Positions 171 through 32,113 of a stretch of 32,428 bases of DNA are shown piece by piece. Source of the stretch: Mobula birostris (Eukaryota); contig NC_092402.1 in assembly GCF_030028105.1 (NCBI RefSeq), positions 74,004,290 through 74,036,717 on the forward strand, written 5' to 3'. The notes under the pieces were generated by a model. It was not told the DNA's origin and did no database searches. It saw only the letters and a list, made by a program, of their open reading frames with translations. Both the position numbers and the translations under genes were made by a program. Position 1 is the stretch's first letter. Each line of letters starts with the position of its first letter.

Positions 171-1770
171 TCATCATCATCACCATCATCAGGTGCCGTG
201 CCCAGTTTGAGCTTTGACTGCCATGGCCCACACACTCCTGTTTCGGGTCAAGTGGATCAATTCATTGGCATTCATTTCCAGTTCTCTGGCTGGGGTCTTC
301 ATCATCATTTGTCTTTGTCTTCTTCTTGCTTTCTTCTCTTCAATCTTTCCCATAATTACTGTGCATTCTAACTCCTTTTTCCTAATCACATGTCCAATGA
401 AGTTACGTTGCCTTTTCATGTTCTCATACATTATTTCTCTATTTGTGTTTGCTCTGTTCATGACATCCTCGTTAGATATTTGTTTCATCCATGATATTCT
501 TTCCATCCTCCACAAAAACCACATCTCTGCTGCTTCAATTCGTTTCCTCATGTTACTAGATATTGTCCAACATTCTGAGCCATATAACATAACTGGATAA
601 ATGTAACATTTCAGTACTCTGAGGCGGGTTGTCATGCCTAGTTTAGTATTGGTCAGTATACTCTTCATTCTCGTAAAGGTGTCTTTTGCCATCCCTATTC
701 TTCTTTTGATGTCCAAGTCGCACCTGCCATCTGATGTCACCCAGCTTCCTAAGTAGCAAAAGTTCTGTACTTGTTTTATGTCTTCCCCATTTATTCTCAG
801 CCTGCAGATAGGATTCTCCTTCCTTTTGGATATCACCATACATTCTGTCTTTTTGCAATTGATAGATAGACCCATTTTTGCACTTTCTTCAACAATTATA
901 TCAATTAAGTTTTGTAGTTCTTCCTCCATACTTGCAATTAACACAGTGTCATCTGCATATCTGAAATTATTGATGTTTTCACTGCCAACTTTGATTCCCA
1001 AGATGTCTCTTATTTTTTGTAATATTGTTTCACTGTACACATGAAATAAATCAGGGGAGAAAACACACCCTTGTCTAACTCCCCTCTTGATTTTCATAAA
1101 CTGACTCACCTCTCCATCTATTCTTACAGCGGCAGTTTGTTCCCAGTACAGATTTCTGATCAGGCAGAGGTCTTTCGAATCTAGATCTAGAATTTTCTGT
1201 AATATTTCTAATAACTTATTGTGCTTCACTTTATCAAATGCTTTTGTGGAGTTGATAAAACAAACAAACAAATCTTTTTGCACTTGAATAGCTCGTTCTG
1301 ATCGTATCCTTAACATCAATATTGCGTTTCTTGTACCTTTGTCTTTCACAAAACCACATTGTTCTTTACCTATTTCAGCGTGTATCTTACCTTTAGCTCT
1401 TGTCATCAAAATTCTTAGAAGTATCTTGGTGATATGACTCATTAAACTTATGGTCCTAAGTAATTCACATTCTATTGCTCCAGGTTTCTTAGGAAGAGTG
1501 ATAAATACTGATTTTTTTCATCTCTTCTGGTATTATTCCAGTCTCATAAATGTCATTGATTAAATCAGTAAGTTTTTCAATTCCATAATCTTTAAGAGTG
1601 ATAATTTGTTCTATTACTAATTCATCAGGACTTGCTGCCTTTCCTTTCTTCATCTTATTTATTGTATTACGAACTTCAGATTTTAAAATACTTGGACCTT
1701 CAACATTTTTCATAATTTCTGGTTTTTCACCTCGATTGTCTTCAAACAATTCCTGAATATACTCAGTCCA
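171..1770 (-). mobile_element. 5'-truncated RTE-clade LINE
   Basis: RT motifs GVRQGCVFSPDLF and YADD; RTE-type WTEYIQELF at the truncation point; (TGA)n tail. A 12-bp TSD with one mismatch flanks it: TCGCTATATACA 159-170 / TCACTATATACA 1771-1782. Confidence 0.9.
189..1770 (-). pseudogene. RTE reverse transcriptase, N-terminally truncated, one frameshift
   Basis: ORFs 1489-1749 and 189-1442 join through a frameshift in the T-run at about 1512-1519 (..EEMKK/KSVFITLPKKPGAIECELLRTISLMSH..). Confidence 0.85.
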
Positions 1771-6990: not shown

Positions 6991-8086
6991 ACACAATGTA
7001 GTATAATTTTCATTTTGCACTTTGAAATGATCATGTTTTCTTTGTTAAACCTTTTCAACATTAGTGCATGTTTTGTCGTGTTTTGTGCATATTTTAACTT
7101 TATATCTCAAATATATCCTTCATTTCCATCTCAAGAATGACTGAATTGGTATCTGGAAATTCATTCATCTGTTTGTGTGAGTATTGTATTTCTTCACTGA
7201 TCTCTTTAATATATGAAGCTAAATGGATAATCAGTGTCTGTTATTCATTGTCACATTAAGATTGGTTGATTTGATTAATTCACTCTTCTTTAGACTTTAA
7301 TATATTTAAGCGAAAGCTTAATCTGGATGTAGTGGTGGATGTGCTCTTAATAAACAAGTTAAGCAGCTCTTAGATAGATCTGTAGCTAAGGCATCAGCCT
7401 GCTAACTGCAGTGGAACCATTCTCCGTAGACAAGACCATGATCAGTTATAAGTATCACTGGCATAGCAAGAAGGAAATCTTTACTTGAGAATCTAAATCC
7501 TGATTATCAGATTGGCTTTATTGATTTTCTAAACTGAGAAAAAGGTTTGATTCTAAATTAGTAGCATTAGCTTCTATAATCATGTCTTGAATAAAATTTA
7601 ATCTCATGCAATATCCTTCCTTTCAGCAACTGAGCCCAACCAATTTCTAGATTTTCTTTGCGAAGGCAGGTGTTTAGTCCAAACCTTCACTAAGTGTTTG
7701 ACCACACTGATCGCTGCATTATCTAGATCCTGGGGCTATGGGATATTTTGAGAGTTCTTTGTCCACATAATACGTTTTTAATTCTAGTTTTGTAGAGGGT
7801 GCTGACATTTTTAGATATTGAGGAAGCCAATCCTCGATAGGGCAGAGATATATGTGAGGGACAGATTTGTGAAAATGCAAACTTCTGAAACTGACAAAGA
7901 TGTGCCTGCTTCTGGTCCAGCTGTGGCATATTTGGATAGAGCCAGGCATCCCATTTGGCCAAGAGTTGTCCATGGTACATTTGTTAATCACATAACCACA
8001 AAATAATCTGCAGATGCTGGGGTCAAAGCAACACTCACAACACACTGGAGGAACTCAGCAGGTCTGGCAGCATCCATGGAAACGAA

Positions 8087-8124
8087 CAGTCAACGTTTCG
8101 GGCCAGAACCCTTCGTCAGGACTG
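8087..8124 (-). ncRNA. Minimal type I hammerhead ribozyme motif
   Basis: Minus strand CAGTC-CTGACGA-AGGGTTCTGGCCC-GAAA-CGTT-GACTG: perfect stem I, both core boxes, GGG/CCC stem II and palindromic AACGTT stem III. Confidence 0.85.
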
Positions 8125-8388: not shown

Positions 8389-9617
8389 TTACCGGAAGTT
8401 GGAGAATTCAATGTTCATACCAAGGGGCTGGAGACTACCCAGATGGTATGTGAGGTTTTGCTCCTCCAACTTGAGCTTAGCTTCATCATGGCAGTAGAGG
8501 AGGCCATGTATGGACATATCTGAATGGGAGTGGGAAGCAGAGTTGAAGTGGGTGGCAACTGGGAGATCCTGTCTGTTGTGGCAGACGGAGCGGAGGTACT
8601 CGACGAAGCGGTCCCCCAATCTGCGTCGGGTTTTACCGATGTAGAGGAGGCCGCACTGGGAGCACCGGATGCAATAGGTGACCCCAACAGACTCAGAAGT
8701 GAAGTGTTGCCTCACCTGGAAGGACTGTTTGGGGCCCTGAATGGTGACAGGAGAGGAGGTGTAGGGACAGGTGTGGCACTTACGCTTACAGGGATAAATG
8801 CTGGGTGGGGATCCGTGTGGATCAGGGAGTCGCGGAGGGACCGATCCCTGGGGAAAGCAGAGAGGGGTGGAGAGGGAAAGATGTGCTTAGTGGTGGGGAC
8901 CTGTTGAAGGTGGCGGAAGTTGCGGAGGATAATGTGCTGGATCCGGAGGCTGGTGGGGTGGTAGGTGAGTACAAGGGGAACTCCGTCCCTGTTGTGGTGG
9001 TGGGAGGATGGGGTGAGGGCCGAAGTGCGGGAAATGGAGGAGATGCGGGTGAGGGCATCATTGATGACAGCAGAAGGGAAACCATGATCCTTAAAGATAG
9101 AGGACATTTGAGATGGCCTGGAAAGGAAAGCCTCATCCTGGGAGCAGATGCAGCGGAGACGGAGGAACTGGGAATAGGGAATGGCATTTTTGCATGTGGC
9201 GGGGTGGGAAGAGGTATAGTTGAGGTAGTTATGAGAGTCAATGGGCTTGTAGAAGATGTCAGTGGACAGTCTGTCTCCAGAGATGGAGACCGAGAAATCG
9301 AGAAAGGGGAGAGAAGTGTCTGAGATAGACCAAGTGAATTTGAGGGCTGGGTGGAAGTTAGAAGTAAAGTCGATGAAATTGATGAGCTCAGCATGGGTGC
9401 AGGAAGCAGCACCAATGTAGTCATCAATGTACTGAAGGAAAAGTTGGGGAGCAGTACCAGTATAGGTTTGCAGCATAGACTGTTCCACATAACCAACAAA
9501 GAGGCAGGCATAGCTGGGGCCCATGCGAGTGCCCATAGCTACACCCTTGGTCTGAAGAAAGTGGGAAGAGCCAAAAGAGAAGTTATTAAGTGTGAGTACC
9601 AGTTCCGCCAACCGGAC
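8389..9617 (-). pseudogene. PLE polyprotein remnant: RT C-terminal half, Cys linker, GIY-YIG endonuclease
   Basis: RT motifs GVAMGTRMGPSYACLFVG and QYIDD; thumb FYKPIDSHNYLNYTSSHP; after a frameshift, PCKRKCHTCP linker and VTYCIRCSQCGLLYIGKTRRRLGDRF GIY-YIG. Confidence 0.9.
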
Positions 9618-9884
9618 ACACAATACAGGATCTCCCGGTTGCCACCCACTTCAACTCTGCTTCACATTCCCATTTGGATATGTCCATACATGGCCTACTC
9701 TACTACCATGATGAGGCTAAACTCAGGATGGAGGAGCAACACCTCATATACCGTCGAGGTAGTCTCCAGCCCCTTGGTATGAACATAGAATTACATAGAA
9801 ACATAGAAAATAGGTGCAGGAGTAGGCCATTAGGCCCTTCGAGCCTGCACTGCCATTTATTATGATCATGGCTGATCATCCAAC

Positions 9885-12800
9885 TCAGAACACCGCCCCA
9901 GCCTTCCCTCCATACCCCCTGACCCCCGTAGCCACAAGGGCCATATCTAACTCCCTCTTAAATATAGCCAATGAACTGGCCTCAACTGTTTCCTGTGGCA
10001 GAGAATTCCACAGATTCACCACTCTCTGTGTGAAGAAGTTTTTCCTAATCTCAGTCCTAAAAGGCGTCCCCTCTATCCTCAAACTGTGACCCCTCGTTCT
10101 GGACTTCCCCAACATCGGGAACAATCTTCCTGCATCTAGCCTGTCCAATCCCTTTAGGATCTTATACGTTTCAATCAGATCCCCCCTCAATCTTCTAAAT
10201 TCCAACGAGTACAAGCCCAGTTCATCTATTCTTTCTTCATATGAAAGTCCTGCCATCCCAGGAATCAATCTGGTGAACCTTCTCTGTACTCCCTCTATGG
10301 CAAGGATGTCTTTCCTCAGATTAGGGGACCAAAACTGCACACAATACTCCAGATGTGGTCTCACCAAGGCCTTGTACAACTGCAGTAGTACCTCCCTGCT
10401 CCTGTACTCACATCCTCTCGCTATAAATGCCAGCATACCATTCGCCTTTTTCACCGCCTGCTGTACCTGCATGCCCACTTTCAATGACTGGTGTATAATG
10501 ACACCCAGGTCACGTTGCACCTCCCCTTTTCCTAATCGGCCACCATTCAGATAATAACCTGTTTTCCTATTTTTGCCACCAAAATGGATAACTTCACATT
10601 TATCCACATTAAATTGCATCTGCCATGAATTTGCCCACTCACCCAACCTATCCAAGTCACCCTGCATCCTCTTAGCATCCTCCTCACAGCTAACACTGCC
10701 ACCCAGCTTCGTGTCATCCGCAAACTTGGAGATGCTGCATTTAATTCCCTCATCCAAGTCATTAATATATATTGTAAACAACTGGGGTCCCAGCACTGAG
10801 CCTTGTGGTACCCCACTAGTCACCGCCTGCCATTCTGAAAAGGTCCCGTTTATTCCCACTCTTTGCTTCCTGTCTGCTAACCAACTCTCCACCCACACCA
10901 ATACCTTACCCCCAATACCGTGTGCTTTAAGTTTGCACACTAATCTCCTGTGTGGGACCTTGTCAAAAGCCTTCTGAAAATCCAAATATACCACATCCAC
11001 TGGTTCTCCCCTGTCCACTCTACTAGTTACATCCTCAAAAAATTCTATGAGATTCGTCAGACATGATTTTCCTTTCACAAATCCATGCTGACTTTGTCCG
11101 ATCATTTCACCACTTTCCAAATGTGCTGTTATCACATCCTTGTTAACTGACTCCAGCAGTTTCCCCACCACCGACGTTAGGCTAACCGGTCTATAATTCC
11201 CCGGTTTCTCTCTCCCTCCTTTTTTAAAAAGTGGAGTTACATTAGCCACCCTCCAATCCTCAGGAACTAGTCCAGAATCTAACGAGTTTTGAAAAATTAT
11301 CACTAATGCATCCACTATTTCTTGGGCTACTTCCTTAAGCACCCTGGGATGCAGACCATCTGGCCCTGGGGATTTATCTGCCTTCAATCCCTTCAATTTA
11401 CCTAACACCACTTCCCTACTAACATGTATTTCGCTCAGTTCCTCCATCTCACTGGACCCTCTGTCCCCTACTATTTCCGGAAGATTATTTATGTCCTCCT
11501 TAGTGAAGACAGAACCAAAGTAATTATTCAATTGGTCTGCCATGTCCTTGCTCCCCATAATCAACTCACCTGTTTCTGCCTGCAGGGGACCTACATTTGT
11601 CTTTACCAGTCTTTTCCTTTTTACATATCTATAAAAGCTTTTACAGTCCGTTTTTATGTTGCCTGCCAGTTTTCTCTCATAATCTTTTTTCCCCTTCCTA
11701 ATTAAGCCCTTTGTCCTCCTCTGCTGAACTCTGAATTTCTCCCAGTCCTCAGGTGAGTCACTTTCTCTGGCTAATTTGTATGCTTCTTCTTTGGAATTGA
11801 TACTATCCCTAATTTCTCTTGTCAGCCACGGGTGCACTACCTTCCTTGATTTATTCTTTTGCCAAACAGGGATGAACATTTGTTGCAGTTCATCCATGCA
11901 ACCTTTAAATGCTTGCCATTGCATATCCACCGTCAATCCTTTAAGTGTCATTTGCCAGTCTATCTTAGCTAATTCACGTCTCATACCTTCAAAGTTACCC
12001 CTCTTTAAGTTCAGAACCTTTGTTTCTGAATTAACTATGTCACTCTCCATCTTAATGAAGAATTCCACCATATTATGGTCACTCTTACCCAAGGGGCCTC
12101 TCATGACAAGATTGCTAATTAACCCTTCCTCATTGCTCAAAACCCAGTCCAGAATAGCCTGCTCTCTAGTCGGTTCCTCGACATGTTGGTTCAAAAAACC
12201 ATCCCACATACATTCCAAGAAATCCTCTTCCTCAGCACCTTTACCAATTTGGTTCAGCCAATCTACATGTAGATTGAAGTCACCCATTATAACTGCTGTT
12301 CCTTTATTGCACACATTTCTAATTTCCTGTTTAATACCATCTCCGACCTCACTACTACTGTTAGGTGGCCTGTACACAACTCCCACCAGCGTCTTCTGCC
12401 CCTTAGTGTTACGCAGCTCTACCCATATCGATTCCACATCTTCCCGGCTTATGTCCTTCCTTTCTATTGCGTTAATCTCTTCTTTAACCAGCAACGCCAC
12501 CCCACCTCCCCTTCCTTCATGTCTATCCCTCCTGAATATTGAATATCCCTGAACATTGAGCTCCCATCCTTGGTCACCCTGGAGCCATGTCTCTGTGATC
12601 CCAACTATATCATAATCATTAATAACAATCTGCACTTTCAATTCATCCACCTTATTACGAATGCTCCTTGCATTGACACACAAAGCCTTCAGGCGCTCTT
12701 TTACAACTCTCTTAGCCCTTATACAATTATGCTGAAAAGTGGCCCCTTTTAATGCTTGCCCTGGATTTGTCGGCCTGCCACTTTTACTTTTCTCCATAGT

Positions 12801-12917
12801 ACTTTTTGTTTCTACCCTCACTTTACACCCCTCTGCCTCTCTGCACTGGTTCCCATCCCCCTGTAGTGAACTAACCTCCTCACGCCTAGCCTCATTAATT
12901 TGATTTCCACCCCCCAA
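9885..12917 (-). CDS. CR1 ORF2 protein (APE endonuclease + reverse transcriptase)
   Basis: 1010 codons with no stop. EN motifs NARS, GITETW, YRPP, MGDFN, SDH; RT motifs QHGF, YLDFQKAFD, GVPQGSVLGP, FADD. The listed start is TTG, the frame is open from 12938, and the first in-frame ATG is at 12797. Confidence 0.95.
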   Translation of the reverse strand: MGGGNQINEARREEVSSLQGDGNQCREAEGCKVRVETKSTMEKSKSGRPTNPGQALKGATFQHNCIRAKRVVKERLKALCVNARSIRNKVDELKVQIVINDYDIVGITETWLQGDQGWELNVQGYSIFRRDRHEGRGGGVALLVKEEINAIERKDISREDVESIWVELRNTKGQKTLVGVVYRPPNSSSEVGDGIKQEIRNVCNKGTAVIMGDFNLHVDWLNQIGKGAEEEDFLECMWDGFLNQHVEEPTREQAILDWVLSNEEGLISNLVMRGPLGKSDHNMVEFFIKMESDIVNSETKVLNLKRGNFEGMRRELAKIDWQMTLKGLTVDMQWQAFKGCMDELQQMFIPVWQKNKSRKVVHPWLTREIRDSINSKEEAYKLARESDSPEDWEKFRVQQRRTKGLIRKGKKDYERKLAGNIKTDCKSFYRYVKRKRLVKTNVGPLQAETGELIMGSKDMADQLNNYFGSVFTKEDINNLPEIVGDRGSSEMEELSEIHVSREVVLGKLKGLKADKSPGPDGLHPRVLKEVAQEIVDALVIIFQNSLDSGLVPEDWRVANVTPLFKKGGREKPGNYRPVSLTSVVGKLLESVNKDVITAHLESGEMIGQSQHGFVKGKSCLTNLIEFFEDVTSRVDRGEPVDVVYLDFQKAFDKVPHRRLVCKLKAHGIGGKVLVWVESWLADRKQRVGINGTFSEWQAVTSGVPQGSVLGPQLFTIYINDLDEGIKCSISKFADDTKLGGSVSCEEDAKRMQGDLDRLGEWANSWQMQFNVDKCEVIHFGGKNRKTGYYLNGGRLGKGEVQRDLGVIIHQSLKVGMQVQQAVKKANGMLAFIARGCEYRSREVLLQLYKALVRPHLEYCVQFWSPNLRKDILAIEGVQRRFTRLIPGMAGLSYEERIDELGLYSLEFRRLRGDLIETYKILKGLDRLDAGRLFPMLGKSRTRGHSLRIEGTPFRTEIRKNFFTQRVVNLWNSLPQETVEASSLAIFKRELDMALVATGVRGYGGKAGAVF

Positions 12918-12922
12918 CCATT

Positions 12923-13126
12923 CTATTTTAAAGTCACCTCAGTAGCCCCCGCTAATCTCCCTGCCAGGATATTGGTCCCCCTAGGATTCAAGTGCAACCC
13001 GTCCTTTTTGTACAGGTCACGCCTGCGCCAAAAGAGGTCCCAATGATCCAAAAACTTGAATCCCTGCCCCCTGCTCCAATCCCTCAGCCACGCATTTATC
13101 CTCCACCTCATCGCATTCCTACTCCT
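12923..13126 (-). pseudogene. CR1 ORF1 C-terminus (SGNH esterase-like)
   Basis: INAWLRDW..FLDHW..YKKDGLHLN carries the DxxH catalytic motif and is homologous to 28990-29172. Confidence 0.9.
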
Positions 13127-13411: not shown

Positions 13412-13449
13412 CAGTCCTGACGAAGGGTTCCGGCCCGAAATGTCAACTC
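13412..13449 (+). ncRNA. Minimal hammerhead motif in the inverted PLE repeat (stems partly decayed)
   Basis: CAGTC-CTGACGA-AGGGTTCCGGCCC-GAAA-TGTC-AACTC. The core is intact; stems I and III carry mismatches. Confidence 0.7.
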
Positions 13450-13805
13450 ATCGTTTCCACGGATGCTGCCCGACCTGCTGAGTTCCTCCAGTGTGTTGTA
13501 AGTGTTGCTTTGTTAATCACATGCCATGTGTCACAAGATCTCCCTCCTTCGTGGCCACAGGAACAATCAAGAACTCTGCTCATTCCCACCTCCCCCAAGT
13601 ATCAGGTCTATGGTCTTCAGGATTGTTAAGGAATGGGAGTTGAGGGATATGGTAAGAATGCTGCAGATACCACTGGGAAATGCAATAAGAAGCTTGGGAG
13701 AATGAGTTAAATGAATTACAGGTGAGATATTTAACTTCTTGGGCTTGATGTATTTACTTCTAATTGCATGGTATCTTCTGTTGTTTAACTTTTGGTTTAA
13801 CACAG

Positions 13806-14119: not shown

Positions 14120-14698
14120 CAGTCATCCCACCTCTCCTGGAAGTTCCGGGAGTCTCCCGCATATTAATAGTGGCTCCCTGATGCCCACAGATTATATAAA
14201 ATGTCCTGGAAATCAATTTTTTTGAGAGAGAAAGCAAGCGAGAGAGAGCGAGCACAAGAGAGACCACGAGAGTAAGAGAGACCACGAGAGCGAGAGAGCG
14301 AGCACGAGAGAGAGAGAGAGCGCGAGAGTGAGAGAGCGCGAGAGAGCCATGGCAGAGTGTTCCAAAAAACAAAAAGGTAAAATGTACATCACCCCAGACT
14401 ACACTAAAGTGTACCCCTGCCTAATAGGGGTCAAAAATAATGACAGTGTTGCTCGCTGCACTGTTTGCAACAGTGACTTTCTATTGCCCATGGTGGGTTA
14501 AAATGTAAAAGACATGTTGAGGTGAGTTTAACAGGTGCATTTGTTCATTAGCATAGCTAACGTTATTTAAACTAGCTGGCTAGCTGCTAAGGAGCTACTC
14601 TATTGCAGACATCCCGCCTCTCCCGGAAGTTCCGGGAGTCCCCCGCAAATTGCTGGTGCTGCCTCCCTGAAATGAGTTTTTGTAGGGTGGGATGTCTG
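14120..14698. mobile_element. Non-autonomous DNA transposon (MITE, possibly hAT-related) with 6-bp TSD
   Basis: 13-bp TIRs CAGTCATCCCACC / GGTGGGATGTCTG; TSD TATGGG 14114-14119 / TATAGG 14699-14704. The left ~60 bp is repeated at 14606-14669. Confidence 0.8.
14223..14346 (+). repeat. Degenerate (GA)n/GAGC microsatellite inside the MITE
   Basis: GAGAGAGAAAGCAAGCGAGAGAGAGCGAGC.. visible directly. Confidence 0.9.
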
Positions 14699-14947
14699 TA
14701 TAGGTAACCCTAGGTAATTTCTAAAGTAAGTACATGTTCGGCACAGCATTGTGGGCCGAAGGGCCTGTATTGTGCTGTAGATTTTCTATGTTTCCATGAT
14801 TTTTTTTTGTGTTTTCTATGAAACAGGAAACAGACATTAGAGATTGATACAACATCCTTTTCATTGTTTCTATTTACATTTTTCATCAAATACTTAGGCC
14901 ACACAGGATTAATTTCACAGAGTCTCCATCTCAAAGATACGGACTGG

Positions 14948-16917: not shown

Positions 16918-17440
16918 CACTGGAAAACAATTTTTTTTTTGGAAAATGCTGTTTCCTCAGAAATTTTTGTAGTTATGATAGACTGCTTGAAGCTCAACAC
17001 AAATATAATTTCAGACTTTTTGTATCATATAGGAATTTGGAGAAACAAGAAATTAACTTTTGTTGAATATAATGCATCTAATTGCATAGTGGTGCTGATC
17101 CTTTGCAATAGTTTAACTGAGCTAAAACTATTCTGTTGATGATTTTCATTTGTACTCAGTATCTGAGGCTTTTCACTTAAGTGTCCAACAATAATCAACC
17201 AGCATTGATGGATTCCAGTTGCCCTGATACCGGTTCTCCATGACTGCAATGTCCTGGTGAATCCTTTCACCATGCACGTCACTGACAGTGCCAAGATTTG
17301 CAGGGAAGAATTCTGAATGGGAATGCTGAAAACGAATCTTCAGTGACATGATGCATGTCATGGTTTTGAATGCTTGAAGCATGTTGTCAACCAGCTGCAT
17401 GTAGTTTGGTGCACTGAAATTTTTAACAACATCCTTGAAT
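16918..17440 (-). mobile_element. Chapaev3-like (CMC) DNA transposon, right end and transposase C-terminus
   Basis: Minus strand FKDVVKNF..MSLKIRFQHSHSEFFPANLGTVSDVHGERIHQDIAVMENRYQGNWNPSMLVDYCWTLK. The terminus CACTGGAAAACAA is preceded by TAA (TWA-type target). Confidence 0.7.
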
Positions 17441-18392
17441 GAAGTAGCTGGAGGGATTGTGGAGGTATTAATGATGATCTTTCAAGAATCAATAGATTCT
17501 GGCATTGTACCAGATGACTAGAAAATTTCAAATGTTACTCAGCTATTTAAGAAGGGTGGGAGGCAGCAGAAAGGAAACTTTAGACCTGTTAGCCTGACAT
17601 CAGTGGCTGGAAAGTTGTTGGAATTGATTGTTAAGGATGAGATTATGGAGTACCTGGAGGCACATGACAAGATAGGCCAAAGCCAGCATGGTTTCCTGAA
17701 AGGAAAATCCTGCCTGACAAACCTACTGCAATTTTTTGAGGAAATTACAAGCAGGGTAGACAAAGGAGATGCAGTTGATGTGGTGTACTTGGATTTTCGG
17801 AAGGCCTTTGACAAGGTGCCGCACGTGAGGCTGCTTGGAAAGATAAGAGCCCGTGGAATTACAGGGAAGTTACTAGCATGTGTGGAGCATTGACTGGTCG
17901 GCAGAAAACAGAGAGTGGGAATAAAGGGATCCTATTCTGGCTGGCTGCCGGTTACCAGTGGAGTTCCACAGGGGTCAGTGTTGGAACCGCTGGTTTTTAC
18001 GAGGTATGTCAATGATTTGGACTACAGTATTAATGGATTTTTGGCTAAATTTGCCAATGATACAAAGATAGGTGGATGAGCGGGTAGTGTTGAGGAAACA
18101 GGGAGACTTAGATAGTTCAGGGGACTGGGCAAGGAAGTGGCAAATGAAATACAATGTTGGAAAGTGTATAGTCATGCACTTTGGTGGAAGAAATAAACGG
18201 GCAGACTATTATTTAGATGGGGAGAGAATTCAAAATGTAGAGTTGCAAAGGGATTTGGGAGTCCTTGTGCAGGATACCCTAAAGGTTAACCTTTAGGTTG
18301 AGTCAGTGGTGAAGAAGGCAAATGCAATGTTGGCATTCATTTCTAGAGGTATAGAGTATAGGAACAGGGATGTGATCTGGAGGTATAGAATA

Positions 18393-19971
18393 CAGGTTTC
18401 CCCCGCTTTTTGAACGTTCACTTTACGAAACCTCAGTGTTACGAAAGACTGACATTAGTTCTCTGTTTTCGCTAACAGAAGGTGTTTTCACTGTTATGAA
18501 AAAAAAGCAGCGCGCGATAAAAGGCGGCGTGCACCCCGAGCAGCCGCTCTCCCCCAGATTCGGAACTGTATTCTAGTCGGCATTGCTTAAACATGTGCCT
18601 GTGAGCAGCCATTAGCAAGATGAGTTCTAAGATATCGGAAAAGCCTGAAAGAGCTTGTAAGGGTGTTACACTTAGCATAAAACTAGACATAATTAAGTGT
18701 TTTGATCGTGGTGAACGAAGTAAGGACAACGTGAGTTTGGCTTGTGGAAGCTGATGAACATGATGTCGAAGAAGTTTTGGCATCCCATTACCAAGAACTG
18801 ATAGATGAAGAGCTGATGCAATTGGAAGAGGAAAGGATAACAATCAAAACCGAATGCAGTAGCGAACTGAATGTGAAGCAACTGCATGAGATTTTCGCTG
18901 CAATGATAAAGTATGACTTTAATTTTAAAAGGGTACGTGGGTTCAGGGGATATTTGCAGGATGGTTTGAGTGCTTACAAAGAACTGTATGATAGAAAAAT
19001 TTGCGAGGCTCAGCAGTCAAACAAGCTTTCCACATCAGCCACAGCAGACAACGAACCTTGACATTCGACATCGAGGTGGGCAGTCATAGGAGAAGATGAG
19101 TTGCCTGCTCTACTGGAAACAGACGATGAGATGACACCCCAGTGTCCCACCACCCCAACTCCCGGGCCCCGGATAGATACCGATTCGCGGAGAATGCAGC
19201 GGTAGCCGGGACGCACCCAGCACATCCTTAAGAAAAAAGCCGAAATAAACATGCTAATTAATTAGGTGCCGCCCGACACGTAATTGTCAGCCCAGATCAG
19301 AGACGATGCAATCGGAAATCGGCATTGATCTGGGCCGACAATTACGTGCCGGGCGGCACCTAATTAATTAGCATGTTTATTTCGGCTTTTTTCTTAAAGA
19401 TGTACTGTGTGCCTCCTGGCTACCGCTGGATGCCTGCGTGCTTCACGTCAATGTATCGGTCGGCGGCCTGGAGGGTGGGATCCACTGCACCACCCAACCT
19501 GCAACGACTCAGTCTAACACACCATCATCAGTGTGCTCGGCGCTGAACCAATTCCGGTAAGTGATACATTATTTCTACTTTATATCGGCTGTGTATTTTT
19601 ACGTGTTATTTGGTATGATTTGGCAGCTTCATAGCTTAAAGGTTACCGGAGAGCGCTTGCACCGTGTTTTTGCCGATGGCGCTTGCGTGAGATTTTCACT
19701 ACGGAGAACAGTGCAATAATGATTGTGGAAAAGTATTTCTACTTTATATAGGCTGTGTATTTATCATATCATTCCTGCTTTTACTATATTTTACTGTTAT
19801 TTTAGGTTTTATTTGTTATTTGGCATGATTTGGTAAGTTATTTTTGGGTCTGTGAACGCTCACAAAATTTTCCCATATAAATAAATGGTAATTGCTCCTT
19901 TGCTTTATGACATTTCGGCTTACGAACCGTTTCATAGGAACGCTGTACCTTCGGATGGCTGGGGAAACCTG
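18393..19971 (+). mobile_element. Internally deleted Tigger/pogo DNA transposon
   Basis: TA TSD (18391-18392, 19972-19973); TIRs CAGGTTTCCCC / GGGGAAACCTG. ATG 18620 begins MSSKISEKPERACKGVTLSIKLDIIKCFDRGE (HTH start), which abuts the Tigger-like C-terminus DVEEVLASHYQELIDEELMQLEEE..YKELYDRK. No DDE core. Confidence 0.9.
19197..19428. repeat. Long palindrome, ~103-bp arms with a 26-nt spacer
   Basis: 19197-19299 is the reverse complement of 19326-19428, e.g. AAGAAAAAAGCCGAAATAAACATGCTAATTAATTAGGTGCCGCCCG / CGGGCGGCACCTAATTAATTAGCATGTTTATTTCGGCTTTTTTCTT. Confidence 0.95.
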
Positions 19972-20849
19972 TATAAGAGCAGGGATGTGATGTTGAGGCT
20001 CTATAAGGCACTCGTGAGACCACACTTGGAGTATTGTGTGCAGTTTTAGGCTCCTTATTTTAGAAAGGATATACTGACATTGGAGAGGGTTCAGAGAAGA
20101 TTCATGAGAATGATTTCAGGAATGAAAGGGTTACCGTATGAAGAACGTCTGGCAGCTCTTGGGCTGTATTCCCTGGAGTTCAGGAGAATGAGGGGGGAAT
20201 CTCATAGAAACATTCTGAATGTTAAAAGGCCTGAACAGATTAGATATGGCAAAGTTATTTCCCATGGTAGGGGAGTCCAGGACAAGAGGGCACGACTTCA
20301 GGATTGAAGGACGTCCATTTAGAACAGAGATGTGGAGAAATTACTTTAGTCAGAGGGTGGTAAATCTGTGGAATTTGTTGCCATGAGCGGCTGTGGAGGC
20401 CAAGTCAATGCGTGCATTTAAGGCAGAGATCGATAGGTTCCCGATTAGTCAGGGCATCAAAGGTTATTGGGTGAAGGCAGGGGAGTGGGGATGACTGGAA
20501 GAATTTGATCAGCCCATGATTGAATGGTGGAGCAGACTCAATGGGCTAAATGGCCTACTTCTGCTCCTATATCTTATGGTCTTATGGATATGGCAAGAAG
20601 GCAGGTGTATGGGGTTGAGTGAGATCCGGAATCAGCCATGATGGAATGGGCTAAATGGGCTAATTCTGCTCCTATGTCTTAGGGTCTTATGGTGTCCATT
20701 TAATCCTATGGGCTTCAGTTTTAATAGCTATTCTAACATGTGCGATTTTATCAAATACATTTGTAAATCCAAACATACAACTTCATCAGCACTCCCTCAT
20801 CTGGGCTCTCTGTTATCAAATTGCCTTCACCTTTTCCCAGAGCAGGAGT

Positions 20850-22712: not shown

Positions 22713-22879
22713 GTCACAAGAGAAAATCTGCAGATGCTGAGAAATCCAGAGTAACGCACACAAAATGCTGGAGGAACTCAACAGGCCAGACAGCATCTAC
22801 GGAGAGGAATAAAGAGTTGACGTTTTGGGCCGAGACCCTTCAATAGGACCCGTTGAGCTCCTCCAGCATTTTGTGTATC
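22713..22879 (-). mobile_element. Miniature Penelope-derived element with inverted end and decayed hammerhead
   Basis: 11-bp TSD TTTTTGTTACC (22702-22712, 22880-22890). ACACAAAATGCTGGAGGAACTCAAC is inverted at the right end. Minus strand GTC-CTATTGA-AGGGTCTCGGCCC-AAAA-CGTC. Confidence 0.85.
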
Positions 22880-23556: not shown

Positions 23557-23696
23557 AAAACAACAGGAATTCTGCAGATGCTGGAAATCAAGCAACACAC
23601 ATCAAAGTTGCTGGTGAACGCAGCAGGCCAGGCAGCACCTCTTCCTACAGATGCTGCCTGGCCTGCTGCATTCACCAGCAACCTTGATGTGTGTAG
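23557..23696 (-). mobile_element. Miniature fold-back Penelope-derived element
   Basis: TSD GGAAATAATT (23547-23556, 23699-23708); 46-bp inverted arms at 23595-23640 and 23649-23694. Confidence 0.85.
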
Positions 23697-24038: not shown

Positions 24039-24046
24039 GTCTAGAG

Positions 24047-24950
24047 CAACACACACAAAATGCTGGAGGAACTCAGCAGGTCAGGCAGCATCCATGGGAA
24101 TGAACAAACCATTGACATTTTGGGCCAAAACGGTTCATCGGGACTGGAATGGAAAGGGGAAGATGTCAGAATAAGAAGGTGAGGGAGGGGAAGGATGACA
24201 AACTAGAAGGTGATAGGTGAAGCCAGGTGGGTGGGGGAGGGGGGGTTGAAGTAAGAAGCTAGGAGGTGATAGGTGGAAAAGGTAAAGGACCGGAGAAGAG
24301 GGAATCTAATAGGAGAGGAGAGTGGATCATGGGAGAAAGGGAGTGAGGGGCACAGGGGGGAGGAGATAGGCAGGTGAGTAGAAGAGAAGAGGTAAGGGAG
24401 GCAGAGTTGGGAAATGAAGAAGACCGAAGGGGAAGAGGGAAAAGAATTACCATAAATTGGAGAAATCAGTATTCATGCCATCAGGCTGGAGGCTACCCAG
24501 ATGGAATATGAGGTGTTGCACCTTCAGTCTGATAGTGACCTCATTGTGGCAGTAGACGAACTTTATGGAATGGGAATGGTGATTGGAATTGAAATGGCCA
24601 CTGGGAAATCCTGTTTTTCGCAGATTGAGTGAGGGTGCTTGAGGGAGCAGTTCTCACCAATGCAGAGGAGGCCACATCAGGAGCATTGGGCACAGTAGAC
24701 GACCCCAGCAGATTCGCTGGTGAAGTGTTCTCTCACCTGGAAGGACAGTTTGGGGCTCTGAATGGAGGTGAGGGAGGAGATGAATGGGCAGGTTTAGCAT
24801 TTCTACCACTTAGGTGTATGGGCAGATGTGGAACTTTGGCCGCTTGGAGGAATAAGTGCCGGGGGGAGATTAGTGGGGAGAGACAAATGGACAAAGGAAT
24901 CATGGAGGGAGCCATCCCTACGAAAAGTGGAGAGCGACAGGGAGGGAGGT
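24047..24950 (-). mobile_element. Older degenerate Penelope-like fragment (3' repeat, GIY-YIG, linker)
   Basis: Colinear with 8025-8880; decayed hammerhead at ~24110-24148; many indels. Confidence 0.85.
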
Positions 24951-28121: not shown

Positions 28122-29172
28122 ATGTGTGTGAGGCCGGTGTTCTGTTCTAGGTGTCAGATGTGGGAAGTCCTGGAGTCTCCCAGCCTCCCGGACAGCCATA
28201 TCTGTACCCGGTGTGTCGAGCTGCAGCTCCTAAAGGACCGCATTAGGGAACTGGAGTTGCATCTCGATGACCTTCGTCTGGTCAGGGAGAAAGAGGAGGA
28301 GAAAGGAGTTATAGGCAGGTGGTCACATCGGGGCCACGGAAGACAGATATGTGAGTCACAGTCAGGAGAGGGAAGGGGAAGAGTCAGATACTAGAGGGTG
28401 CCCCTGTGGCTGCCTCCCCCCCCCTTAACAATAAGTACTGTTGGGGGGGAGACGGCCTACCTGGGGGAAGCAACAGTGGTCACACCCCTGGCACAGAGTC
28501 TGGCCCAGTGGCCCAGAAGGGTAGGGAAAGGAAGAGGATGGCAGTAGTGACAGGGGACTCTATAGTTAGGGAGTCAGACAGACGATTCTGTGGATGCATG
28601 AAAGAAACACAGATGGTAGTTTGCCTTCCAGGTGCCAGTGTCCAGGATGTTTCTGATCGTGTCCATGATATCCTGAAGTGGGAAGGAGAACAGCTAGAGG
28701 TTGTGGTACATATTGGTACCAACGACCTAGGTAGGAAAAGAGAAGAGGTCCTGAAAACAGACTACAGGGAATTAGGAAGAAGGTTGAGAAGCAGGACCAC
28801 AAAAGTCCTCACTAAGGGTCTCACCCCGAAACGTCGACTGTACCTCTTCCTATAGATGCTGCCTGGCCTGCTGTGTTCTACCAGCATTTTGTGTGCGTTG
28901 CTTGAGTTTCCAGCATCTACAGATTTTCTGGTGTTTGCATTTGTAAAGGTAGTAATCTCGGGATTACTGCCTGTGCCACGCGACAGTGAGTATAGGAATA
29001 GAATGAGGTGGAGGATAAATGCGTGGCTGAGGGATTGGAGCAGGGGGCAGGGATTCAGATTTGTGGATCACTGGGACCTCTTTGGGGGCAGGTGTGACCT
29101 GTACAAAAAGGACAGGACCCCAATATCCTGGTGGGGAGGTTTTCTAAGGCTATTGGGGAGAGTTTAAACTAG
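28122..29172 (+). pseudogene. CR1 ORF1 (Zn finger/leucine zipper + SGNH esterase), frameshifted
   Basis: CSRC..CTRC, LKDRIRELELHLDDL, VVTGDSIVR, VVHIGTND. It ends NILVGRFSKAIGESLN-TAG at 29170-29172. Confidence 0.88.
28806..28944 (+). mobile_element. Short Penelope 3'-repeat insertion (hammerhead-led) inside CR1 ORF1
   Basis: AGTC-CTCACTA-AGGGTCTCACCCC-GAAA-CGTC-GACT followed by GATGCTGCCTGGCCTGCTG..CCAGCATCTACAGA. AAAG flanks both sides (28802-28805, 28945-28948). Confidence 0.85.
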
Positions 29173-31749
29173 AATTGTTGGGGGGTGGGAACCGAACTGA
29201 GGAGACTGGGGAAGAGGCGGTTGACTCACAAATAGAGAAAGTTGGAGACAGTGCGAGAGGGAGGATAGGTAGGTGATAGAGAAGGGACGTGCTCAGACGG
29301 GCAGTTTGAGATGGAGAATTGTGAACAAAGCGGATGAGCTTAGAGTATGGATCAGTACTTGGAGCTATGATGTGGTGGCCATTACAGAGACTTGGATGGC
29401 TCAGGGACGGGGATGGTTACTTCAAGTTTTAGATGTTTCAGAAAGGACAGGGAGGGAGGAAAAAGAGGTGGGGGCGTGGCACTGTTGATCAGAGATAGTA
29501 TCACGGCTGCAGAAAAGGAGAAAGTCATGAAGGGATTGTCTATGGAGTCTCTGTGGGTGGAGGTTAGGAACAGGAAGGGGTCAATAACTCTAATGGGTGT
29601 TTTTTATAGGCCGCCCAATAGTAACAAGGATATCGAGGATCAGGTAGGGAAACAGATCCTGGAAAGGTGAGTAAGGGGAATTATGAGGCTACCAGGCAGG
29701 AACCTGGAAGCTTAAATTGGGAACAGATGTTCTCAAGGAAAGGTACAGAAGAAATGTGGCAAATATTTAGGGGATATTTGTGTGGAGTTCTGCATAGGTA
29801 CGATCCAATGAGACAGGGAAGTTATGGTAGGGTACAGGAACCGTGGTGTACAAAGGCTGTAGTAAATCTAGACAAGAAGAAAAGAAAAGCTTACAAAAGG
29901 TTTAGAGAGCTAGGTAATGTTAGAGATCTAGAAGATTATAAGGCTGACAGGAAGGAGCTTAAGAATGAAATTAGGAGAGCCAGAAGGGGCCATGAGAAGG
30001 CCTTGGTGGGCAGGATTAAGGAAAACCCCAAGGCATTCTACAAGTATGTGAACAGCAAGAGGATAAGACTTAAAAGAATAGGACCAATCAAGTGTGACAG
30101 TGGGAAAGTGTGTATGGAACAGGAGGAAATAGCAGAGGTACTTAATGAATACTTTACTTCAGTATTCACTATGGAAAAGGATCTTGGTGATTGTAGTGAT
30201 GACTTGCAGCAGACTGAAAAGCTTGAGCATATAGACATTAAGAAAGAGGATGTGCTGGAGCTTTTGGAAAGCATCAAGTTGGATAAGTCACTGGGACCGG
30301 ATGAGATATATCCCAGGCTACTGTGGGATGTGAGGGAGGAAATTGCTGAGCCTCTGGTGATGATCTTTGCAGCATCAATGGCGACGGGAGAGGTTCTGGA
30401 GGATTGGAGGGTTGTGGATGTTGTTCCCTTATTCAAGAAAGGGAGTAGAGATAGCCCAGGAAATTATAGGCCAGTGAGTCTTACTTCAGTGGTTGGCAAG
30501 TTGATGGAGAAGATCCTGAGAGGCAGGATTTATGAACATTTGGAGAGGTATAATATGATTAGGAATAGTCAGCATGGCTTTGTCAAAGGCAGGTCATGCC
30601 TTACGAGCCTGATTGAATTTTTTGAGGATGTGACTAAACACATTGATGATGGTAGAGCAGTAGATGTAGTGTATATGGATTTTAGCAAGGCATTTGACAA
30701 GGTACCCCATGCAAGGCTTATTGAGAAAGTAAGGAGGCATGGGATCCAAGAGGACATTACCTTGTGGATCCAGAACTGGCTTGGCCACAGAAGGCAAAGA
30801 GTGGTTGTAGACAGGTCATATTCTGCATGGAGGCCAGTGACCAGTGGTGTGCCTCAGGGATCTGTTCTGGGACCCTTCGTGATTTTTATAAATGACCTGG
30901 ATGAGGAAGTGGATTGATGTGTTAGTAAGTTTGCTGATGACATTAAGTTTGGGTGTGTTCTGGATAGTGTGGATGGCTGCCAGAGGTTACAGCAGGACAT
31001 TGATAGGATGCAAAACTGGGCTGAGAAGTGGCGGATGGAGTTCAAGCCCAGATAAGCGTGAAGTGGATCATTTTGGTAGGTCAAATATGATGGCAGAATA
31101 TAGTATTAATGGTAAGATTCTTGGCAGTGTGGAGGATCAGAGGGATCTTGGGGTCCGAGTCCATAGGACACTCAAAGCATCTGCACAGGTTGACTCTGTG
31201 GTTAAGAAGGCATATGGTGTATTGGCCTTCATCAATCATGGAATTGAATTTAGGAGACAAGAGGTAATGTTGCGGCTATGTAGGACCCTGGTCAGGCCCC
31301 ACTTGGAGTACTGTGCTCAGTTCTGGTCACCTTACTATAGGAAGGATGTGGAAACCATAGAAAGGGTGCAGTGGAGATTTACAAGGATGTTGCCTGGATT
31401 GGGGAGCATGCCTTATGAAAACAGGTTGAGTGAACTCGGCCTTTTCTCCTTTGAGCGACAGAGGATGAGAGGTGACCTGATAGAGCTGTATAAGATGATG
31501 AGAGGCGTTGATCGTGTGGATAGTCAGAGGCTTTTTCCCAGGGCTGAAATGGCTAGCATGAGAGGGCACAGTTTTAAGGTGCTTGGAAGTAGGTACAAAG
31601 GAGATATCAGGGGTAAGTTTTTTCACACAGAGAGTGGTGAGTGTGTGGAATGGGCTGCGGCAACGGTGGTGGAGGCAGATACGATAGGGTCTTTTAAGAG
31701 ACTTTTGGATAGGTACATGGAACTGAGTAAAATAGAGGGCTATGGGTAA
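29163..31749 (+). pseudogene. CR1 ORF2 (EN partly deleted near 29667, RT), with frameshifts and stops
   Basis: VAITETW, FYRPP, QHGFVKGRSC, YMDFSKAFD, GVPQGSVLGP and FADD distributed over several ORFs. Confidence 0.9.
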
Positions 31750-32113
31750 CCCTAGGTAATTTCTAAGGTAGGGACATGTTCGGTACAACTTTGTGGGCGG
31801 AAGGGCCTGTATTGAGCTGTAGGTTTTCTGTGTTTCTATGAATAGCTGGTGCATACTACAAGTCCTGGTTATGCAACCATTAACGCCAGGCAGACGATCT
31901 CTGGCTGGGGTCAACCGTCTTTCTTGTAAAGATACTGTCCAGACGAAGGCAGTGGCAAATCACTTCCGTATAAAAATTTGTCAAGAACAATCATGGTCAT
32001 GGAAAGGCCATGATTGGCCATGTCTTAGTATAATGCATATAATGAATGAGTGAATGGGGAAATCACAGGCTTTTTCCTCAATGTTCTTTGTATTTCCATT
32101 TCTGCCTCTGTAG

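Follow-up and report, generated by a model that had tools for sequence, protein, structure and literature searches.

A candidate −1 frameshift site at the ORF1/ORF2 junction of CR1-type LINEs from Mobula birostris and other jawed vertebrates

Vertebrate long interspersed nuclear elements (LINEs) of the CR1 type, among them chicken CR1, turtle PsCR1 and the CR1s of sharks and rays, have a layout of two open reading frames (ORFs), and in chicken no other interspersed repeat is as abundant as CR1, which accounts for 11.8% of the genome (PMC11835228). ORF1 encodes an SGNH esterase, ORF2 an apurinic/apyrimidinic endonuclease (APE; here the endonuclease domain, EN) and a reverse transcriptase (RT), and the elements end in octamer-like repeats without poly(A). 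We analysed a stretch of 32,428 nucleotides (nt) from Mobula birostris (contig NC_092402.1, positions 74,004,290 to 74,036,717; hereafter the window), animal DNA with many retroelements, in which two CR1-type copies of this organization span the ORF1/ORF2 junction. One of them (copy 2; 28122-31840, plus strand) carries at the junction a slippery heptamer directly followed by the ORF1 stop codon. Judged from sequence, the best reading of this arrangement, and one that we consider probable, is a −1 frameshift at U_UUA_AAC that would yield an ORF1–ORF2 fusion.

The mechanism by which LINE ORF2s are translated has been described as 'not clear' (PMC3708506). In L1 and SART1 the RNA is bicistronic, as here, and ORF2 depends on the translation of ORF1 (PMC2881922; PMC3708506). 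However, L1 and SART1 make separate proteins, and SART1 uses a UAAUG, whereas here there is no stop–start overlap with an AUG: none of the three junctions that we could read as DNA has an in-frame ATG near the stop. The Dictyostelium elements TRE5-A and TRE3-A are, like CR1, APE-type and lack long terminal repeats, and a −1 frameshift is said to be required for their ORF2 (PMC5911963); their host and ORF1 are different, and the passage describing them does not name a slippery site. Recoding of ORF2 by a +1 shift, reinitiation or readthrough was proposed for LINE groups of Paramecium (PMC5405496), and zebrafish ZfL2-1 shares the esterase ORF1 (PMC3905857). Coronavirus ORF1a/1b and retroviral gag-pol have in common with the CR1 junction the heptamer UUUAAAC, the −1 phase and a polymerase downstream (PMC8499926). 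In coronaviruses, however, the heptamer is followed by a pseudoknot and an overlap of 7-31 nt (PMC8499926), whereas here the stop stands directly after it; as no conserved 3′ stem-loop is predicted, the likeness ends at the heptamer. Our literature search returned no report on CR1 frameshifting, though the founding CR1 papers of 1997-2003, which lay outside its coverage, may already note an overlap or frameshift; the part covered of a 2016 review of frameshifting does not name CR1.

Phase and start codons at the junction

ORF1 of copy 2 ends AGT TTA AAC TAG at 29161-29172, where its frame reads NILVGRFSKAIGESLN*. Both had been given in a preliminary description of this DNA, which also recognized the heptamer TTTAAAC (29163-29169, plus strand) as the coronavirus slippery site U_UUA_AAC, in agreement with the published site (PMC8499926). 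The heptamer, T TTA AAC, has the form X XXY YYZ and is identical in a metagenomic relative, L027 (see below), as is the position of the ORF1 stop TAG immediately 3′ of it (29170-29172). In the zero frame both copy 2 and L027 have U UUA AAC; copy 1, the other copy of the window, has U UUA AAA. A TAA at 29145-29147 closes the −1 (ORF2) frame five codons upstream of the heptamer and bounds the possible shift site. Since in each of the three DNA junctions (copy 1, copy 2 and L027) the −1 frame is closed 2-5 codons 5′ of the heptamer, any shift would have to occur at or beside the heptamer. Downstream of it the −1 frame encodes FKLELLGGGN in copy 2 and FKIEWLGGGN in copy 1, as first described. The heptamer alone is at chance level in the window, with 7 matches to TTTAAAC against 5.38 expected and at least 7 in 28 of 100 shuffles; five other matches fall outside ORF1 ends. 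A second TTTAAACTAG, at 14566-14575, has no ORF1 context; about 120 nt downstream it is followed by a fragment of a CR1 3′ tail (14699-14799; 88% to the tail of copy 2).

The preliminary description had also proposed to confirm, on a subfamily consensus, that the −1 frame is continuous with EN. Copy 2 itself lacks this continuity, its −1 frame meeting a stop at 29274 and its EN being in a different frame, but the family has it. We aligned contigs from public runs to 29020-29480 at 80% likeness (14,789, 17,502 and 1,355 contigs for X1, X6 and X16, respectively, of which X16 may be RNA); a fourth run, X21, of raw reads, gave none and is uninformative. Compared with them, the linker ahead of EN in copy 2 (29172-29314, plus strand) is 1 nt short at 29241 and 18 nt short near 29313, and carries a private stop at 29270. 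In these runs 60, 69 and 22 contigs, respectively, show the extra base behind 29241 (30-55% of local depth), and loose contig ends at 29241 likewise carry it. At 29270 the family has a sense codon, the base differing from that of copy 2 in about 98% of the depth. The first EN motif is encoded by the 18 additional bases near 29313; a further 7 bases are present at 29425. One X16 contig across 29147-29355 is 228 nt long, a net gain of 19 (1 + 18). The extra base, the absence of the stop at 29270 and the 18 further bases together bring the −1 frame (mod 3 = 0) into the EN frame (mod 3 = 2).

No AUG precedes EN in this frame. ATG is absent from 29163-29310 in copy 2, and the ATG at 29311 is out of the ORF2 frame, which confirms what had been claimed for this copy; in the family the first in-frame AUG is at 29396, inside EN and downstream of its first motif. 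With ORF2 of the family contigs in the −1 phase and without a conserved AUG, the frameshift model proposed earlier survives the refuting condition set for it, namely ORF2 in another phase or a conserved AUG. An AUG ahead of the first EN motif is missing from two families, that of copy 2 and L027. From the heptamer onward the downstream ORF can be read without a break in the −1 frame in copy 1, L027, the copy 2 family and stork gene models; it is broken in copy 2 itself. ORF2 of copy 1 (9885-12938, minus strand) is open for 1017 codons in the −1 frame, starting two codons upstream of the heptamer and including both EN and RT. The 42 codons of copy 1 between the heptamer and the first AUG are open in 5% of shuffles and the 83 codons up to EN in 0.25%, and the other frames hold 2-9 stops. 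The absence of AUG bears also on the idea that ORF2 is expressed from a separate or spliced RNA, in which case TTTAAA would serve as a TATA-like box or TAG would be the 3′ splice site. TTTAAA and YAG fit such motifs by eye only, but purines predominate upstream and a pyrimidine tract is missing, and an AUG would still be absent in two families. The family contigs revealed no position at which starts or ends of molecules accumulate, a feature that contigs are unable to display. We regard this idea as very improbable.

The title of the preliminary description implied that copy 1 carries U_UUA_AAC too, and its text took the second copy as independent support. Neither point stood up. The junction of copy 1 is T TTA AAA TAG (12932-12923, minus strand), and the two copies are homologous, with 77% identity over 249 nt across the junction. 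At this identity the probability that at least 6 of the 7 heptamer bases are kept is 0.50, and the comparison of the two copies therefore carries no independent weight. The AAA is probably private to copy 1, because its nearest named ORF1 relative, P0001 of Mobula hypostoma (98%), ends Leu-Asn.

The junction in distant relatives

As far as sequence can tell, the real support for the frameshift model is in distant relatives, namely L027, the stork ORF2 models and a Leu-Asn-stop end shared across a clade. Our metagenome scan returned 40 loci, of which we read eight (L027-L034), the other 32 having 23-31% identity or one very short match. No loci were found among viral contigs with A2, A3 or P0099 as query, plasmids gave no match, and the 26 loci from GTDB were all distant matches of prokaryotic type at 24-32%. 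(The alignments A1-A4 were built from Leu-Asn-ending proteins and were kept out of the counts below.) The ORF1 of L027 is 97% identical to P0283 of Acipenser and 45% to Mobula P0001. Its junction, CAT TTA AAC TAG, has the heptamer and stop of copy 2, and its −1 frame, open from five codons upstream of the heptamer, contains no Met as far as the EN motif.

We sorted 162 ORF1-like proteins by their C-termini. A terminal Leu-Asn, preceded by variable residues, stands where expected in 45 of them, and 7 have Leu-Asn and then run on; the rest have other ends (43), run on (46, three of them via FKL at the expected place) or are short (21). A quick tree was made from 97 of the 162 proteins and six loci after removal of the last eight residues, 65 proteins being omitted for short alignment. 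All 33 Leu-Asn proteins in the tree fall into one clade of 45 proteins plus L027 (SH-aLRT 92). Its named members come from Mobula, Leucoraja, Acipenser, Synaphobranchus, Paramormyrops, Chrysemys and Lepidochelys, that is, from rays, skates, sturgeon, eel, mormyrid and turtles.

Where FKL is read in the −1 frame, the DNA is fixed as T TTA AAY TR. FKL occurs in 5 of the 120 listed ORF2 proteins, all of them gene models from stork, in which it is in the same frame as the EN motif and 95 residues N-terminal to it. It also occurs in 5 of the 162 ORF1-like proteins (P0012, P0159, P0186, P0187 and, ambiguously, P0201). Either read directly or implied, T-TTA is present in the ray, sturgeon-like and stork elements, the ORF1s of which share 35-45% identity.

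These data bear on the possibility that Leu-Asn is kept for the function of the ORF1 protein, its codons being inherited or due to chance, while ORF2 starts at each lineage's own AUG or weak start. The two copies of the window do not by themselves discriminate against it (P = 0.50, as above), and both the AUGs found before EN in several lineages and the chance frequency of the heptamer in the window agree with it. However, none of the 52 homologous esterase ORF1s outside the clade ends Leu-Asn. Moreover, TTA is a minority Leu codon (13 of 93 in copy 1 ORF2, 4 of 25 in L027 ORF1), yet T-TTA is what the ray, sturgeon-like and stork elements show or imply, and two families lack an AUG before the first EN motif altogether. 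We consider this explanation improbable.

A stronger rival is AUG-independent termination–reinitiation, in which ribosomes that have terminated at UAG would resume translation at a near-cognate codon a short way further on in the −1 frame and make a separate ORF2 protein (ORF2p), the conserved bases being part of the signal. A TTG in the ORF2 frame stands 6 nt after the stop in copies 1 and 2, CTG takes this place in about half of the family contig depth, and reinitiation would also fit the lack of 3′ structure at the junctions. But L027 has AGG and AAG at this position and no TTG, CTG or GTG. Reinitiation also leaves unexplained why the heptamer fits X XXY YYZ perfectly and in the correct phase, why the stork models contain FKL, and why the −1 frame stays open from the heptamer even in elements with a later AUG (copy 1 and stork). 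It appears unlikely to us.

The junction looks conserved across jawed-vertebrate CR1s by these sequence comparisons. The site is best explained as the junction between ORF1 and ORF2 that the CR1 LINEs of jawed vertebrates had ancestrally, retained in copy 2 although this copy is dead. Under vertical inheritance the signal would reach across the divergence of cartilaginous and bony fish, about 450 million years ago. A profile search for long ORF1–ORF2 fusion proteins gave three matches and no clean fusion, which is uninformative, as gene callers would not predict one. CR1 sequence was also noted in P0022, which bears a bacterial label (Carnobacterium), and in the C-terminal parts of the turtle and bird models P0211, P0295 and P0297; gene models with such C-terminal parts include a shisa-4 isoform, a zinc-finger protein and a PDE10A-like protein. 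These four entries are probably contamination or mis-joined models.

The remaining metagenomic loci, L028-L034, are L2-type esterase LINEs (L028 and L033 being near-identical). The ORF1 of L028 matches PDB 4C1B (3e-33), which we take to be ZfL2-1. The five of these loci that were placed in the tree all belong to the other ORF1 clade (support 96). Their ORF1 ends in TGA in 7 of 7 (for example near 2610 in L028 and near 1320 in L029), followed by C in 6 of 7. Unlike at the CR1 junction, ORF2 is not in the −1 frame but behind the TGA in the frame of ORF1, in all seven, and it is open to the EN motif in five. Such a junction fits stop readthrough, to go by the sequence, and stop readthrough or suppression has reportedly been described for zebrafish ZfL2-1. 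With ORF2 in frame behind TGA in the other clade, both clades would make ORF1–ORF2 fusions by different recoding routes.

Proposed mechanism and candidate stimulators

In active elements most ribosomes would terminate at the UAG and release the ORF1 protein (ORF1p). A minority would slip back one base on U_UUA_AAC, one of the heptamers on which mammalian ribosomes shift most readily (PMC5009743), and continue through the variable linker into EN and RT. The product would be a rarer ORF1p–EN–RT fusion, as in Gag-Pol. Both tRNAs may slip in tandem, or the Asn-tRNA may slip while the adjacent UAG awaits release factor. The sequences themselves show the phase, the heptamer with its stop, the open −1 frame, the missing AUG in two families and the conservation throughout the clade; from these we infer the slip, the fusion protein and any stimulatory role of the stop or of the G-run described next.

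A run of six G residues begins 10 nt after the heptamer at 29180-29185 (plus strand) in copy 2 and encodes Gly in the −1 frame. It recurs at exactly this spacing in all three DNA junctions (12915-12910 on the minus strand in copy 1; 1142-1147 in L027), and the peptides that follow FKL in the stork models and in the shifted proteins are compatible with it. The run may simply encode Gly. Frameshifting stimulated by a protein is known in arteriviruses (PMC5009743), and the G-run as a stimulator is for us a lead rather than a result. Of the three sequence features of a canonical −1 element, the heptamer and the open −1 ORF are present, and a conserved stem-loop or pseudoknot 5-9 nt downstream was not found with models of nested folds and G-quadruplexes. 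Because of this negative structure test, we describe the junction as working like a canonical −1 element and do not file it as a member of that class. A long hairpin was predicted across the junction of copy 2; we rejected it, since it uses bases beside the private deletion and is not shared. Rfam gave no match at the junction, and one chance match only.

Several observations weigh against frameshifting. When nested folds and a G-quadruplex option were modelled (without pseudoknots), no stable 3′ fold was shared by the three junctions: the sequence downstream in L027 is 83% purine and almost unfolded (−1.7 to −3.5 kcal/mol), that of copy 1 folds no better than shuffles (z +0.8 to +1.3), and the hairpin of copy 2 begins about 30 nt downstream (z −2.3, significant in one of three window lengths). 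AUGs are found before EN in the ORF2s of copy 1, stork and turtle, albeit at unrelated places (45 codons after the heptamer start in copy 1, 13 and 24 residues before the EN motif in stork and turtle, respectively), and the open-frame test for L027 is weak when taken alone (30% of shuffles). For L1 and SART1, in which ORF2 depends on ORF1, it is reinitiation that has been proposed (PMC2881922; PMC3708506). Of the 45 proteins of the Leu-Asn clade, 12 lack the Leu-Asn end, most of which look shifted or cut short. The junctions read directly as DNA number three, two of them in close relatives, the bird evidence consisting of gene models and that of the turtles of protein ends. Finally, among 40 of the 64 variants of the family contigs none touches 29154-29175, which includes the heptamer, or creates an AUG, a view with which a minor heptamer variant, or a minor variant creating an AUG (for example, GTG at 29273), is compatible.

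A more specific form of the frameshift model is possible, and we put it forward tentatively. Jawed-vertebrate CR1s might share an ancient −1 signal free of structure, in which the heptamer, the stop next to it and a G-run fixed 10 nt away, to which a stimulating factor would bind, together give an esterase–EN–RT fusion, while their L2 relatives would reach the same fusion by UGA readthrough.

The CR1 copies in the window and implications of the junction

Copy 2 is near full length and decayed. Its ORF1 (28122-29172, plus strand), with a Cys motif and the SGNH esterase, was delimited by tblastn to P0001 and P0005 and ends Leu-Asn-TAG. It has a frameshift near 28300, a repeat insertion and a 19-nt loss near 29114, seen as a gap against copy 1. 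The inserted repeat fragment (approximately 28804-28940, no strand assigned) is an unrelated sequence, 73-91% identical to several other sites of the window; relatives lie near 7994-8123, 13413-13510, 22721-22840, 23558-23680 and 24045-24100. Pfam matches of the ORF1 fragments of the window to Lipase_GDSL_2 and OSK were below cut-off; P0001, which is near-identical to copy 1 ORF1, matches PDB 4C1B (9e-28), which identifies ORF1 as an SGNH esterase. ORF2 of copy 2 has suffered deletions, frameshifts and stops: its partly deleted EN and its RT (29315-31749, plus strand) are spread over several frames (tblastn to P0019 and P0022 at 55-70%; RVT_1, 4e-23). The 3′ untranslated region (31750-31840, plus strand) ends in two octamer-like repeats (31824-31840).

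Copy 1 (about 13123 to 9784, minus strand) retains only the last 65 codons of ORF1, followed by the unbroken ORF2 with EN and RT, and has three units of the tandem 8-nt repeat, against two in copy 2, again without poly(A). These repeats are of the CR1 type. Above cut-off, Pfam reports PF03372, PF14529 and PF00078 in copy 1 and PF00078 in copy 2, where pieces of EN were found by tblastn. The best RT matches include RT proteins of stork, turtle and Xenopus at 37-64%, none of them labelled CR1. By domain content and 3′ repeats, and so far as these sequence features go, the element is an ordinary CR1-type LINE; the locus of copy 2 is a dead copy, and the interest is in its family rather than in the locus.

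The two copies are 77% alike near the end of ORF1 (28993-29222 versus 13121-12873) and 67% alike in RT (30393-30955 versus 11267-10700). This is the reverse of the usual order and suggests an exchange of modules between families or an extra constraint. Further CR1 RT fragments are present near 17438-18373 and 19971-20586. ORFs at 8389-9650 (minus strand) adjoin the 3′ end of copy 1; by eye we presume them to encode a Penelope-type RT with a GIY-YIG-like end. An RT-like ORF of 442 codons at 189-1517 (minus strand) belongs to another LINE type.

How the ORF2 of LINEs is translated is a long-standing question, which the CR1 junction makes testable. Annotators start CR1 ORF2 at the next Met, and in two of the families described here this would remove the first EN motif. 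With a conserved −1 site, if true, the actual CR1 polymerase would be an ORF1–ORF2 fusion, made in a ratio to ORF1p that the site determines, and the recoding signals of vertebrate cells would gain one that seemingly works without a pseudoknot. Should the more specific form of the model be true as well, a covalent ORF1p–ORF2p product would be a need common to esterase LINEs.

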